Sequence record: OR352947.1
From: Escherichia phage AV117
Length of the DNA: 64,000 nucleotides
Direction: 5' to 3' (one strand)
Shown: positions 42,128 to 46,185 of the stretch, piece by piece
How positions within the stretch are numbered: the stretch's first letter is position 1
Layout of the letters: the number at the start of each line of letters is the position of its first letter
The notes under the pieces: model-generated
The model's input: only the letters and a program-made list of their open reading frames with translations
Database searches by the model: none
What the model was told of the DNA's origin: nothing
Position numbers and translations under genes: made by a program

Positions 42128-42433
42128 TTATTTTCCTCGACATTCTTTAATGAAATTTTCTAGATTGGTAGATTCAATAGCTTTTTTACGAGCTTCTGCG
42201 TGTTCTTCTTCGGACAATTTACGTTTATAATTGACCCAGACATTATGGTCGAAACCAGTCGTGGCATATAATAACAATGCTCCAACGAATAGCAAAAACG
42301 GCGATAAGAATACAAAACCAGGAACACCATCCATATCGTAAGCCTTTTGTAATACTGCAACAGAAAGAGCTACGTAAAAAGGTGATGCAAGTATTGTTAA
42401 AAGACCAATTCGGTTGGTTTCTGTTAATTTCAT
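42128..42433 (-). CDS. hypothetical membrane protein (C-terminal ENFIKECR motif)
   Basis: 101 aa; two TM segments; C-terminal ENFIKECRGK. Confidence 0.5.
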   Translation of the reverse strand: MKLTETNRIGLLTILASPFYVALSVAVLQKAYDMDGVPGFVFLSPFLLFVGALLLYATTGFDHNVWVNYKRKLSEEEHAEARKKAIESTNLENFIKECRGK

Positions 42434-42771: not shown

Positions 42772-43728
42772 TTATTTGAAAGGTTTTACCATATGAAAGT
42801 TTTGTTTGAAACGCTTGACGTAATCGTCATGTCCTAAGCTTTGGTACATACTTACTACTTTGCTATAATTTTCCCAAGCGAACTCACGGAACCAACCGGA
42901 GGTGATGCTTGTGCAGACTTTTTCTAATGCCATCATGAAACTGGCTTCAGGGTTAATTTCAAAGTTATTAGGAATCTGAGAACGTTCTAACGCTAGTACA
43001 CATGATTCTTCGTATACACCGGCCAATTTGACCATTTCTGGTAACGATTCGAACTTCTCGCGTGAGGTCATGACTTCAGAACCGTCTTTCATGTAAAACG
43101 TATATGCTGGACGGTCTGTTAGTGCAATGGCTTCATGAATAGTATCATGGTCATATGTATAGATATCATCTTTAAAGAACGCACTTTTAGAAGTGTCAAG
43201 AACTGGGTGAGCATAGTTCAAGGTTTCTTTCTGGCGTTTCAGCATAATTTCAGTAAGTTCATCGTTCAGTATAACACCTTTACCACGAAGATACTGAATA
43301 TGGTTCATAGTCTTTAAAAAGAATGGATTATTTTTCTTGAAACGATGAGACATCTTAATTGCAAGGCACATCTCAGGAGTTGCCCAGTAAAACCCGTTCA
43401 AACGGTCTTTAGTCAAATTTTTCTTGGCGTATTTTAAAAGGTCATAAGAAGACGTGAAATCTTCAGGAGTGAGTTCACCGACCAATTCACGGACATTAGT
43501 GATTGCCGGAACAATATATGCTTCAAAATGAGTTTCGCGTCCATTATGGAAGCATTTGAAAACTTGGACATCAGGGTTATCTTGATGAACATATACACCC
43601 ATCATTTGATTTTTAAATGCATTCCAAGAACTTTGGTCTGCAATAAAGTCCCAATCACTATTTTTGATAGCGTTAGAATCAATAAGACCGTGATAGTGAA
43701 GTGCACGAGAACCAATAACTAACATCAT
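42772..43728 (-). CDS. hypothetical protein with weak nucleotidyltransferase-like N-terminus
   Basis: 318 aa; IGSRALHYHG...SDWDF loosely fits GS...DxD. Confidence 0.45.
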   Translation of the reverse strand: MMLVIGSRALHYHGLIDSNAIKNSDWDFIADQSSWNAFKNQMMGVYVHQDNPDVQVFKCFHNGRETHFEAYIVPAITNVRELVGELTPEDFTSSYDLLKYAKKNLTKDRLNGFYWATPEMCLAIKMSHRFKKNNPFFLKTMNHIQYLRGKGVILNDELTEIMLKRQKETLNYAHPVLDTSKSAFFKDDIYTYDHDTIHEAIALTDRPAYTFYMKDGSEVMTSREKFESLPEMVKLAGVYEESCVLALERSQIPNNFEINPEASFMMALEKVCTSITSGWFREFAWENYSKVVSMYQSLGHDDYVKRFKQNFHMVKPFK

Positions 43729-43752: not shown

Positions 43753-43992
43753 TTAAATTTCACGACATGCGATATTATATTCATCCCAGAGGTCATCGTG
43801 TGAAGCCTCTACCAATGGAACGATTGTACCATTTATATCTTCATTATAAGGGCAAATTGTACAATGTGCATCTTCGAATCGGATGCCTTTGTGTTCAGAT
43901 TTTTTATAACGCATATCGAATATCTTTGCAAACTTTTCACGAGTAATGGTTTTAGCAACCACTTCGGTTCCAACACTTTCATAATAAATCAT
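43753..43992 (-). CDS. hypothetical protein
   Basis: start set at ATG 43992; C-terminal NIACREI. Confidence 0.45.
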   Translation of the reverse strand: MIYYESVGTEVVAKTITREKFAKIFDMRYKKSEHKGIRFEDAHCTICPYNEDINGTIVPLVEASHDDLWDEYNIACREI

Positions 43993-44020
43993 TGTGGACT
44001 CCATTTAATTTGATAGGACT

Positions 44021-44050
44021 ACTATAACATAGTCCTATCTTGTTGTAAAC
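44021..44050 (-). promoter_or_regulatory. early-type promoter with perfect palindrome
   Basis: GTTTAC-N18-TATAGT; GATAGGACTA-ctataacat-AGTCCTATC identical to cassette at 50742..50769. Confidence 0.55.
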
Positions 44051-44054
44051 TGTT

Positions 44055-44252
44055 TTAGCAAGAATAACTAGATGATACCCAGCCTTGAACAGTGATACTA
44101 TTGTGGGATAATGAGATCGCGTCCTGGAGATTCAGACCTGCGTTATCTTCAATCCATAACGTAACTTCTTCGCGTTCTTCTGTTGCAATTTGGAACAGGT
44201 TTTCCAGAGCAGCTACTGCCGTACGTACAGCACAATCTAATTCACGAGACAT
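44055..44252 (-). CDS. hypothetical protein, SSxxC-tail family member
   Basis: 65 aa; C-terminal QGWVSSSYSC. Confidence 0.5.
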   Translation of the reverse strand: MSRELDCAVRTAVAALENLFQIATEEREEVTLWIEDNAGLNLQDAISLSHNSITVQGWVSSSYSC

Positions 44253-44261
44253 ATGGTTTCC

Positions 44262-44534
44262 TTAACAAGTGTGAGAAGATGCGATCCAACCACCAGTTTC
44301 GAGGCTCAGGTTGTAGTCGTATTGGTAAACGTCGGCCCATTCAGCATAGCCATTTTTTGTACAACGTTCAAGATCGGCTTTAAGTTGTCCGGGTGAATGA
44401 TAGGTTCCACCCATACCATAAGCTGGACACAAGTCGAATGATGTGTTTTGTTTATCAGCAATTTCTTTGGCAGCCTCAATAGCTGCATAGATTTTTGCTA
44501 CAGCTTCAGCCAGTTCGGTTTGTTCTTTAGACAT
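44262..44534 (-). CDS. hypothetical protein, SSxxC-tail family member
   Basis: 90 aa; C-terminal GGWIASSHTC. Confidence 0.5.
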   Translation of the reverse strand: MSKEQTELAEAVAKIYAAIEAAKEIADKQNTSFDLCPAYGMGGTYHSPGQLKADLERCTKNGYAEWADVYQYDYNLSLETGGWIASSHTC

Positions 44535-44543
44535 AGTGATTCC

Positions 44544-44849
44544 TTAGCACAACGCAGAAGACGAAACCCAAGCACCTTCAGTAATAATGTAACCATTACC
44601 TTCACGCTTAACATCGCCACCATTATTTTCAATTTCATCTTTCATCCACTGGGATACGATTTCACCCTTAGGATAATAAGTACGACCACTACCATAATCA
44701 CCTACAGAAAATGATACGGCATATTGGTCTGCGATCTTTGTTGCTTCTTCTTCGATACGTTCAGCTTGATTCAGAAGTTTATAAATTGCATCTGAAGCGG
44801 ATTTGGCATCATTAAACTCTGGTACTTTAATTTCAATAATCTTACTCAT
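44544..44849 (-). CDS. hypothetical protein, SSxxC-tail family member
   Basis: 101 aa; C-terminal GAWVSSSALC; ATGA overlap with upstream gene. Confidence 0.5.
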   Translation of the reverse strand: MSKIIEIKVPEFNDAKSASDAIYKLLNQAERIEEEATKIADQYAVSFSVGDYGSGRTYYPKGEIVSQWMKDEIENNGGDVKREGNGYIITEGAWVSSSALC

Positions 44850-45205
44850 TTTCTACATTCCTTAATAAAGTTTTCGATTGTTTCATTTTCACGTCTAGCT
44901 AGGAGTTCATTATAACTAATCATTTGAGAAGCGTAAACCTTTTTATTTTTCTTGTTATGGTTTATAAAATCGTAGTAAAAATAGACTACAGTACAAAATG
45001 ATGCGATGGATGCAAAGGCTTGTGTATACCGTAAGTCCTGCCATTGGTCTGTGAATCCGCCAGTGTTCCCTATAAATCCTAACACAACGCCGTCAATAAG
45101 AAATCCAACTAATCCAAAGGCAAATCCCATGCCAATACTCATAATAAAAATTAGAATGTTCTCACCAAGAGAAGGCCATACGGTTAAGAGTTGAGGCTTT
45201 TGCAT
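44846..45205 (-). CDS. hypothetical membrane protein (C-terminal ENFIKECR motif)
   Basis: 119 aa; three hydrophobic segments; C-terminal ENFIKECRK. Confidence 0.5.
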   Translation of the reverse strand: MQKPQLLTVWPSLGENILIFIMSIGMGFAFGLVGFLIDGVVLGFIGNTGGFTDQWQDLRYTQAFASIASFCTVVYFYYDFINHNKKNKKVYASQMISYNELLARRENETIENFIKECRK

Positions 45206-45579
45206 CTTATTTCCTTAACGAATTCCATAGCTTCTTCATATTCATACTTTTTAACAGCTTCATCATACTGAGCTTGGGCTTTTGCGCACTGAACTTTCCA
45301 CTCACGAACTCGAGCTCTGTGATGACGGCCTTGGTGCCAATATCCTGCCCAATTAATAGGCATTAATAAAAACGGTACAATAAGTGGTGCGACGAACATT
45401 AATGAAAACGCTGCATCAGACGATATAACTTTATTGGAATCTAAAACAGCTCCTATAATCATAAAGATTAAAAACGCTAAAGCTAAAATAGGGCCAAATA
45501 GTACTTCATTTGGGATTAATTTACGTTTGTATTCGTATGCCCAGGGCTTAATTGGCATGTACAGGGTTGGCTTTGACAT
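45184..45579 (-). CDS. hypothetical membrane protein
   Basis: start set at ATG 45579; TM segment; C-terminal EFVKEIRCK. Confidence 0.45.
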   Translation of the reverse strand: MSKPTLYMPIKPWAYEYKRKLIPNEVLFGPILALAFLIFMIIGAVLDSNKVISSDAAFSLMFVAPLIVPFLLMPINWAGYWHQGRHHRARVREWKVQCAKAQAQYDEAVKKYEYEEAMEFVKEIRCKSLNS

Positions 45580-46144
45580 ATTCTCTACATTCCATAATAA
45601 ATTGCTCAAGGATTAAATTGTTAGTGAAATTAGGACTAACAACCATGGTTTCATAAAGCGCATCAATAGCACTTAAAGCATCAACTCTTTTAAGCAAAGG
45701 CTTGCCTTCATACATAGTTTCAGAATCGACGATTAACGTAAAGTAATATTTTTTATTATCGACTAGAACTTCAGTATCGATATAAAACATGTTAGACCTT
45801 AAAAGCTTGTCTCTAAAGCCTAAGTAATCATCTGAACGTTCACTGATATAGTCCCATTCAGTGTTTAAACAACAAACAGACCACGTAGGAGCAACGAAAT
45901 CAGTGAATCTAATATCATGGTCTGCAACTAGTTTAGCAATAGCTCCGATATCATGAATCATAATACCTGGGGCTAATAAAGATTTTCGGTTATTTGCATA
46001 TTCAGTTGTCTCATAAGAAGACGACCAGTACCATTTACGTCCAGTTGCAACATATCGTAATGAATCAACTAAAGACGTAGGTGGATTTACCTTATTTCGG
46101 AACTCTTCGAACATTGAGTCAATATCATTATTTTGGTTTCGCAT
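45548..46144 (-). CDS. hypothetical protein
   Basis: start set at ATG 46144; contains EQFIMECRE near C-terminus. Confidence 0.45.
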   Translation of the reverse strand: MRNQNNDIDSMFEEFRNKVNPPTSLVDSLRYVATGRKWYWSSSYETTEYANNRKSLLAPGIMIHDIGAIAKLVADHDIRFTDFVAPTWSVCCLNTEWDYISERSDDYLGFRDKLLRSNMFYIDTEVLVDNKKYYFTLIVDSETMYEGKPLLKRVDALSAIDALYETMVVSPNFTNNLILEQFIMECREYVKANPVHAN

Positions 46145-46159
46145 GTTAACTCCTTTATT

Positions 46160-46185
46160 ATCCAAAAGGAGGACCGGAGTCCTCC
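46160..46185 (-). terminator. candidate terminator hairpin
   Basis: GGAGGAC-N4-GUCCUCC hairpin with U4 (minus) and U-rich tract (plus); possibly bidirectional. Confidence 0.45.

Follow-up and report, generated by a model that had tools for sequence, protein, structure and literature searches.

Cysteine-ended small proteins of Escherichia phage AV117 and their genomic pairing with a DUF7277-DUF7275 enzyme

Small early genes of unassigned function number in the hundreds in large virulent phages, and are a continuing source of newly found mechanisms of counter-defence and host takeover. Three adjacent small genes in Escherichia phage AV117 (sequence record OR352947.1, of which one stretch of 64,000 nucleotides (nt), here called the window, was analysed) raise the question of why proteins of different length should each close on a tryptophan- and serine-containing tail with cysteine as the very last residue. 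A first-pass annotation, made from the sequence alone, had described them as tandem open reading frames (ORFs) of 65, 90 and 101 amino acids with MSK or MSR starts, a helical N-terminal part and the tails QGWVSSSYSC, GGWIASSHTC and GAWVSSSALC, and had proposed lipidation, a cross-link or a metal site for the invariant cysteine. What it lacked was the decisive context. The three genes belong to a large family, restricted to phages and without a described relative, that forms one half of a two-family gene module, in which tandem arrays of small genes lie on the same strand as, and usually immediately upstream of, a gene for an enzyme with DUF7277 and DUF7275 domains. It is at this enzyme that the tail most likely acts.

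Three paralogues and their cysteine tail

The three genes occupy the minus strand of an accessory region between e/nudE/e.2 and e.3-e.6, within DNA that is 98% identical to Mosigvirus genomes (RB69-like T4-type coliphages such as HX01, APCEc01 and F27), and all three are annotated as "hypothetical protein" in every genome record. Paralogue 1 (44544..44849, 101 amino acids) matches RB69ORF139c, belongs to phrog_899 and carries a hairpin of the GDYGSGRTYYP type; paralogue 2 (44262..44534, 90 amino acids) is also of phrog_899, with the hairpin type AYGMGGTYH; and paralogue 3 (44055..44252, 65 amino acids), which matches RB69ORF136c and belongs to phrog_4882, is a shortened form that retains the N-terminal helix and the tail. 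Gaps of 9 nt separate the ORFs, whose first residues are MSK, MSK and MSR, respectively. The tandem arrangement first described is confirmed, at exactly the coordinates given. All three tails, likewise on the minus strand, are as first read: GAWVSSSALC at 44547..44576, of the form G-x-W-x-S-S-S-x-x-C with the stop codon directly after it, GGWIASSHTC at 44265..44294 and QGWVSSSYSC at 44058..44087.

Likeness among the three proteins is not confined to these tails. The 90- and 101-amino-acid proteins align over 73 residues (BLASTP E 1e-6) and share both an N-terminal helix with an ..IAD.. motif and a glycine-rich hairpin, while the 65-amino-acid protein, which keeps the helix and a degenerate hairpin, matches the two others at E 8e-4 and 7e-4. 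Between families, phrog_4882 (the 65-amino-acid subfamily) aligns with phrog_899 (the main family) over the full length, with an hhalign probability of 95.9% and E 5.7e-9. We take the three ORFs to be true paralogues of ancient divergence, homologous beyond the tail. An AlphaFold2 model of the 101-amino-acid protein (mean predicted local distance difference test score, pLDDT, 89) contains a helix at residues 15-43, in agreement with the helical N-terminal part first proposed, followed by a hairpin at 47-59, a helix at 67-75 and three strands, with W94 on the last strand and a five-residue tail behind it; confidence drops only at the last residue (61 at residue 101). The same build characterizes the family, namely a long N-terminal helix, a glycine-rich beta hairpin (YGMGGTYYP or GDYGSGRTYYP), a small sheet with an invariant tryptophan on its last strand, and the tail, -[S/A/P]-S-S-x-x-Cys-COOH, which is predicted to be exposed after that strand.

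Could the tail be a by-product of gene layout rather than a property of the proteins? The first-pass annotation had itself named the outcome that would undo its claim, a tail explained solely by a shared downstream ribosome-binding site (RBS) with no similarity upstream. What was found is homology beyond the tail, and a Shine-Dalgarno sequence of the following gene that starts at the stop codon (TGC TAA GGA..., TGT TAA GGA...), outside the tail codons. Among 151 distinct tails collected from related loci of many phages, the cysteine is encoded by TGC in 98 cases and TGT in 48, and the serines by all six codons, AGY included. The 65-amino-acid gene has no RBS after its tail and is followed instead by a hairpin with a 10-bp stem (44012..44039, between this gene and the next), annotated as a terminator in a sister phage, and the tail is nevertheless kept. 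An RBS artefact is ruled out by the position of the Shine-Dalgarno sequence, the varied cysteine and serine codons and this last gene, and codon choice and gene layout together show the tail to be under selection at the protein level.

The invariance of the terminal cysteine, first claimed for three proteins, extends across the sample: cysteine is the last residue in 146 of the 151 distinct tails and is followed by one residue in 2 more. The consensus reads G-G-W(-7)-x-[S/A/P](-5)-S(-4)-S(-3)-x-x-C(0), with serine at -3 in 128 of the 146. Besides the usual distance of 7, tryptophan and cysteine are also found 5 and 8 residues apart, and thus the cysteine must be terminal while its spacing can vary, as would be expected of a flexible arm more than of a rigid site in the structure. 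Within the window the motif is confined to the triplet. In a six-frame scan of the 64 kb the motif patterns were matched by the 90- and 101-amino-acid tails only; the 65-amino-acid tail (W-V-S-S-S-Y-S-C) appears solely in the list of cysteine-ended ORFs, and no further ORF there ends W-x-[SA]-S-S-x-x-C.

A profile search with HMMER, run exhaustively over 1.84 billion representatives, brought the family itself fully into view and returned 121 clusters (50% identity) at E below 1e-3, nearly all of 65-150 amino acids and with the profile match reaching the last residue; word-indexed searches gave close relatives only. Family proteins have about 65-170 amino acids and are acidic (isoelectric point 4.2-4.7; family median 4.46). 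By tblastn, the 101-amino-acid type is present in 484 phage records, including Mosigvirus, Dhakavirus, Karamvirus, Slopekvirus, T4-likes of Aeromonas, Serratia and Pectobacterium, Pseudomonas Otagovirus and Phapecoctavirus. There is no Pfam model and no solved structural relative for the family. Pfam, NCBIfam and PADLOC scans of the three window proteins gave at best MS_channel_3rd (E 0.099) and Peptidase_S78_2 (E 0.006), both under the family cut-offs, and a PDB sequence profile search with the family gave just low-complexity matches to designed armadillo repeats. Profile matches in giant FG-GAP or cadherin surface proteins were judged spurious, a matter of repeats or composition, and a ubiquitin-like sulfur carrier of the ThiS-MoaD kind was set aside, as the combination of a beta-grasp fold and a C-terminal Gly-Gly is not found here. 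The RB69 reference annotation of the first gene is truncated: RB69ORF139c, of 71 amino acids, is identical to the 101-amino-acid protein for 67 residues, then reads ..WYEK and stops, with no cysteine tail. Either the gene is frameshifted or a pseudogene in RB69, or the sequence contains an error. Other database members (P0006, P0018 and P0019) are similarly truncated.

The chemistry open to the cysteine is narrowed by these properties. The N-termini of the three window proteins are hydrophilic (MSKIIEIKVPEF, MSKEQTELAEA and MSRELDCAV), and none has a signal peptide or lipobox; because there is no signal peptide, the proteins are presumably cytoplasmic. For the same reasons, and with the cysteine at position 0 rather than at -4 as in a CaaX box, the lipidation first suggested is unlikely. 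A cross-link or a metal site would have to be intermolecular, because the terminal cysteine is the only cysteine in 77 of 156 family members; the intramolecular form of that suggestion falls away, and the intermolecular form is possible. The cysteine, last or last but one on a flexible tail and the only one in half of the members, also recalls that of DsrC/TusE, SoxY and HypE, which are carriers with a C-terminal cysteine arm, and the small proteins could likewise bear a persulfide, acyl or other small group on their thiol and work with host pathways, in which case the enzyme would be only loosely related to this role; we give this account a small chance.

Coupling to the DUF7277-DUF7275 enzyme gene

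The partner enzyme of 318 amino acids is encoded at 42772..43728, on the same minus strand, its ORF starting 326 nt downstream of the 65-amino-acid gene; it belongs to phrog_2141, with Pfam DUF7277 at residues 2-101 and DUF7275 at residues 120-305. The gene directly downstream of the small protein in phages phiPsa374 and tuntematon is 46% and 43% identical to this ORF, respectively (E ~1e-82 to 1e-84). When 80 IMG/VR loci picked solely for encoding the enzyme were searched with the hidden Markov model (HMM) of the small-protein family, 67 contained at least one small protein, in all cases on the same strand, nearly always 0-2.8 kb upstream and as 1-6 copies in tandem, with a gap to the enzyme gene often of only 1-50 nt. 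Seven of the 13 loci without an HMM match hold divergent cysteine-ended ORFs at the same position (..WDSSTC, ..WVQSSC, ..WDSSSANC), which brings the combined count of loci with small proteins upstream of the enzyme to about 74 of 80. From the other side, six diverse representatives of the small-protein family were looked up, and in every contig with enough downstream DNA a PF23942+PF23940 gene was found within about 1.2 kb. The copies paired with the enzyme number four in Otagovirus phiPsa374, two in Phapecoctavirus tuntematon and two, upstream, in Acinetobacter Acj9; downstream of the enzyme are two in Xanthomonas X1 and one in Stenotrophomonas Bhz51.

The pairing thus spans unrelated phage lineages, Straboviridae among them, and is kept in phages of Escherichia, Klebsiella, Enterobacter, Aeromonas, Acinetobacter, Pseudomonas, Xanthomonas and Stenotrophomonas as well as in many metagenomic phages. 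The module is essentially restricted to phages, since the enzyme was found in only 8 contigs of metagenome-assembled genomes (MAGs) among 185,579 species genomes; 3 of the 8 also show a small protein. Clustering of neighbouring ORFs in 40 non-redundant loci yielded only two recurrent families, the small protein and the enzyme; an apparent third was an antisense shadow ORF of the enzyme gene. The 83-amino-acid ORF of phrog_3723 that stands between triplet and enzyme gene in the window (43753..44004, minus strand) was ruled out as a third core component, as it occurs only in Tevenvirinae-type loci (17 of about 100), and is a lineage-specific filler outside the module core. In Mosigvirus this ORF carries an HCTICPY (C-x-x-C) motif, in place of which Dhakavirus-type homologues have HCINDPY.

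Two readings of the locus bear directly on this context. The enzyme and the small proteins, which might for instance act against a host factor as acidic decoys or sponges, could have independent functions and merely share a hyperplastic accessory region, with the terminal cysteine serving structure or dimerization. The e-frd region of T4-type phages is a known hot spot of small accessory genes, and acidic small proteins are common as phage inhibitors; yet same-strand adjacency is kept across unrelated phage families whose neighbouring genes differ, and no third family recurs, and we therefore hold mere synteny to be improbable. A second reading takes the small proteins as precursors akin to ribosomally synthesized and post-translationally modified peptides (RiPPs), in which the folded N-terminal part would act as leader and the W-x-S-S-S-x-x-C tail would be converted, for example by serine activation and elimination with cysteine addition, to a ring like that of aminovinyl-cysteine (AviCys) or lanthionine, and perhaps released. 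Tandem small genes beside one enzyme are typical of RiPP loci, and S(-3)-x-x-C(0) is the spacing of the AviCys ring as in epidermin and cypemycin, with serine at -3 in those 128 of 146 tails. No dehydratase, decarboxylase of the HFCD type, radical-SAM enzyme, protease or exporter recurs in the 40 clustered neighbourhoods, however, the supposed leader is a confidently folded domain with invariant motifs of its own, and the spacing is loose, given the alternative tryptophan-cysteine distances. Of all readings weighed here this is the least probable, and a very unlikely one.

Several observations attach to individual loci. In three loci with no detectable small protein (L053 7321-7446, L054 7491-7616 and L057 5729-5854) the start of the enzyme gene is overlapped by a short ORF with the sequence ..LWVSSNTKIDP.., perhaps what is left of a cysteine-tail gene after decay or a frameshift. 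Three unrelated phages have, no more than a few kb from the DUF7275 gene, genes annotated as nicotinamide phosphoribosyltransferase and ribose-phosphate pyrophosphokinase, a pair of the NAD-reconstitution type (Acinetobacter Acj9, L005 5783-8437; Stenotrophomonas Bhz51, L007 1-670; Vibrio K412, L011 210-3163), which could be an accessory-region coincidence or a hint at nucleotide or NAD metabolism. In three further cases (L095 51-944, L096 4132-5262 and phage DSS3_PM1, L008 1830-2810) the DUF7275 gene is preceded, at a distance of 1-4 kb, by an RNA ligase gene (PF09414 / Rnl2), which in the last of them adjoins a metallophosphoesterase gene; the enzyme may, on this hint, belong to a setting of RNA or tRNA end repair.

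The partner enzyme and the possible fate of the tail

What kind of enzyme is the partner? In alignments of 11 and 33 homologues, residues G6, S7, D25, D27, K125, H128, H194, D195, H198, E240, E241, E248 and R249 are invariant, and the block KVC272TSITSGWFR is almost so, KVCTSITSG being essentially identical even at about 40% overall identity. The N-terminal pattern, which consists of hhhhGSxAL...(K/R)xxDhDh and, behind it, an acidic residue in "xExEI" that is semi-conserved, resembles in its G6-S7...D25-x-D27 the minimal signature of Pol-beta nucleotidyltransferases; the candidate for the third acidic residue, the E/D of the beta-like "xExEI", is only about 70% conserved. In DUF7275 the motif H...HP..L...YDHDSIHE is loosely HD-like. 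Compared with an HD phosphohydrolase, H128, H194-D195 and H198 are invariant but the downstream aspartate is not, E240, E241 and E248 being invariant instead, and profile searches gave no match to any HD protein. Both the nucleotidyltransferase-like and the HD-like assignment are leads rather than memberships. Acinetobacter phage records label the enzyme "putative nucleotidyltransferase"; in Acinetobacter phage phi1_092060 an automated pipeline labels the DUF7275 homologue (L012 2992-3945) a "DefenseFinder protein", a label not confirmed by PADLOC HMMs, which gave no match. That pipeline is probably structure-based, in which case the label would imply a resemblance in fold to some protein of a defence system.

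The triplet appears to be transcribed from a T4 middle-type promoter. A promoter-like site (GCTT, 14 nt, TATAAT) occupies 44909..44932 of the minus strand, within the 3' end of the e.3-like gene and about 60 nt ahead of paralogue 1, and the annotation of the sister phage SA79RD gives it as a middle promoter; no late-promoter box (TATAAATA) was found near the triplet. Because of the middle-promoter-like site and the lack of a nearby late box, the evidence points to pre-replicative expression, which speaks against a structural role in the virion. The possibility of T4 internal proteins with a capsid-targeting sequence was dropped, since the N-termini are not conserved leaders of that kind and the family reaches far outside T4-type phages. 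Over the whole window and both strands, MotA-box-like sites (GCTT-N11-16-TANNNT) number 114, against 68.7 +/- 8.1 in shuffles, an excess that fits many T4-type middle promoters in an early/middle gene region.

Four small, mostly membrane-type genes in the neighbourhood (e.3/e.4/e.5-like and one more, at 42128-42433, 44846-45205, 45184-45609 and 45548-46165, all on the minus strand) share C-terminal tails of another kind, ..ENFIKECRGK, ..ENFIKECRK, ..EFVKEIRCK.. and ..IMECREY... For three of the four, the following gene has its Shine-Dalgarno sequence and ATG overlapping this shared tail (AAGGAATGTAGAAAATGA, AAGGAAATAAGATG, CGAGGAAAATAATATG), which looks like a reused translational-coupling cassette, a DNA-level account that does not apply to the cysteine-tailed triplet. 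The e.4-like membrane protein (45184-45609) is called a "sulfurtransferase" in one GenBank record (phage F27, L001 5489-5884) and a hypothetical or membrane protein in others; nothing in this analysis supports the former label.

The reading we favour, with somewhat less than even confidence, is that the tail is a substrate or ligand of the DUF7277-DUF7275 enzyme, with a chemistry that is inferred. The tail would enter the active site of an enzyme composed of a Pol-beta-type nucleotidyltransferase-like N-terminal domain and a helical C-terminal domain rich in invariant histidine, aspartate and glutamate and carrying an invariant cysteine. There it would be covalently modified, most likely by nucleotidylylation of a tail serine or of the terminal cysteine; alternatively, thiol or metal chemistry may take place between C272 of the enzyme and the terminal cysteine. 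Since the bodies of the paralogues have diversified, each could bring the common tail to a partner or target of its own, and a pre-replicative role, in host takeover or counter-defence for example, is suggested because a middle-type promoter is combined with a location in a host-takeover gene region. A substrate is favoured over other roles because the small proteins occur in 1-6 copies, with ancient subtypes retained side by side, and the tail is their most conserved shared element.

The main rival turns the relationship around, and the precursor, thiol-carrier and synteny readings are less likely. The small proteins would be inhibitors or antitoxin-like regulators that hold a possibly toxic enzyme off, either by a terminal cysteinate (thiol plus carboxylate) in a metal centre, after the model of the "cysteine switch" of metalloprotease pro-domains, or by an antitoxin action of the MenAT/AbiE kind. 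A small acidic gene first and an enzyme gene second, often separated by so short a gap, is the classic order of toxin-antitoxin operons; the invariant histidine, aspartate and glutamate residues could bind a metal, and the terminal position of the cysteine counts for more than its spacing from the tryptophan. Against this, up to six anciently diverged paralogues with retained subtypes are unexpected of a one-to-one inhibitor, no AbiE/MenT or other PADLOC model is matched, the module is nearly absent from cellular genomes, and enzyme homologues occur without a small partner. On balance we consider inhibition possible and rather doubtful.

A number of points weigh against the tail as substrate. 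Adjacency could also mean that the small proteins regulate the enzyme rather than being modified by it. The nucleotidyltransferase assignment rests on a short motif with a longer-than-canonical spacer, 17 residues between G-S and D-x-D in the window enzyme and about 12-20 in homologues, compared to the x(9-13) of the signature. Searches with the enzyme against PDB (full length and N-terminal domain), NCBIfam and PADLOC profiles found nothing credible, Pfam scans of 33 members gave only the two DUFs consistently and otherwise scattered weak single-member matches, and hhalign comparison with AadA and KNTase stayed below 1% probability. A single-sequence AlphaFold2 model of the enzyme (pLDDT 36) is unusable for its fold. 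About 5 of the 80 enzyme loci have no small protein, and phage DSS3_PM1 has the enzyme cysteine with no small protein within 4 kb. In favour of the substrate reading, enzymes of the KVCTSITSG clade almost always occur with small proteins, and none of 9 members of a clade with RTITSLTKG, which lacks the cysteine (Gordonia, Mycobacterium and Vibrio K412 phages and IMG/VR loci L108-L113), is flanked by one; this correlation probably reflects one phylogenetic split, a single event, and is suggestive only.

A bolder form of the substrate reading, which we regard as decidedly unlikely, is a new phage protein-modification system. The enzyme would transform the -SS-x-x-Cys-COOH arm of small carriers or adaptors, to a Ser-O- or Cys-S-linked nucleotide or to an eliminated, cyclized tail, and the products would serve as thiol or nucleotide "warheads" that the diversified paralogues carry to different host targets early in infection. 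Three anonymous ORFs have in any case become a defined, testable unit with a one-residue hallmark, the obligatory terminal cysteine, and one specific partner enzyme, which makes clean experiments possible. Covalent modification of the tail, if it occurs, would amount to a new post-translational chemistry and would assign a function to DUF7277 and DUF7275; if it is an inhibitor plug, a new phage-borne pair of enzyme and regulator would be defined.

Comparison with known systems

Membership of the window proteins in phrog_899, phrog_4882, phrog_2141, DUF7277 and DUF7275 is clear (E 1e-18 to 1e-150), but these entries carry no function and record neither the tail motif, nor the link between phrog_899 and phrog_4882, nor the coupling of the two families. 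Literature searches on the RB69ORF names, the Pfam and PHROG families and C-terminal-cysteine phage proteins returned nothing on either gene family. The motif, the link and the DUF7277-DUF7275 pairing appear to be unreported, and neither family appears to have a characterized homologue, a novelty that is provisional, being based on the absence of a sequence, fold or literature match.

Among proteins with a reactive cysteine at or next to the C-terminus, DsrC/TusE, SoxY (GGCGG-COOH) and HypE (PRIC-COOH) present it to a partner enzyme on a flexible arm, much as is proposed here, but their folds and sequences are unrelated, and no genes for sulfur oxidation, tRNA thiolation or hydrogenase maturation lie nearby. 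Precursors of AviCys lanthipeptides and linaridins, of the EpiA/EpiD type, are likewise small tandem genes with an S-x-x-C-COOH end; they differ in that no LanD-type flavoprotein or dehydratase accompanies the small proteins, whose bodies are folded and conserved rather than disordered leaders. Toxin-antitoxin systems are recognized by model matches, a single cognate antitoxin and occurrence in cellular genomes, whereas here there is no PADLOC match, there are 1-6 paralogues, and the cellular record amounts to the 8 MAG contigs.

Further parallels are with nucleotidyltransferase-like enzymes that go with a small partner. MNT-HEPN (type VII) and MenA-MenT/AbiE (type IV) are two-gene operons in which a small partner accompanies a minimal nucleotidyltransferase-like protein (GS...DxD); the partner in MNT-HEPN is AMPylated. 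The present module has no PADLOC or Pfam match to them, and its partner is multi-copy, cysteine-ended and without the RxxxxH of HEPN, in a module found only in phages. In GlnD, the uridylyltransferase/uridylyl-removing enzyme, a nucleotidyltransferase domain is followed by a helical domain rich in histidine and aspartate (HD in that enzyme), and its target, PII, is a small protein of about 100 amino acids, an arrangement that offers a possible model of reversible nucleotidylylation for the cysteine-tailed proteins. If the DUF7277-DUF7275 enzyme is a true nucleotidyltransferase that modifies the tail, the module would be a distant variant of the GlnD-PII and MNT-HEPN nucleotidylylation pairs.

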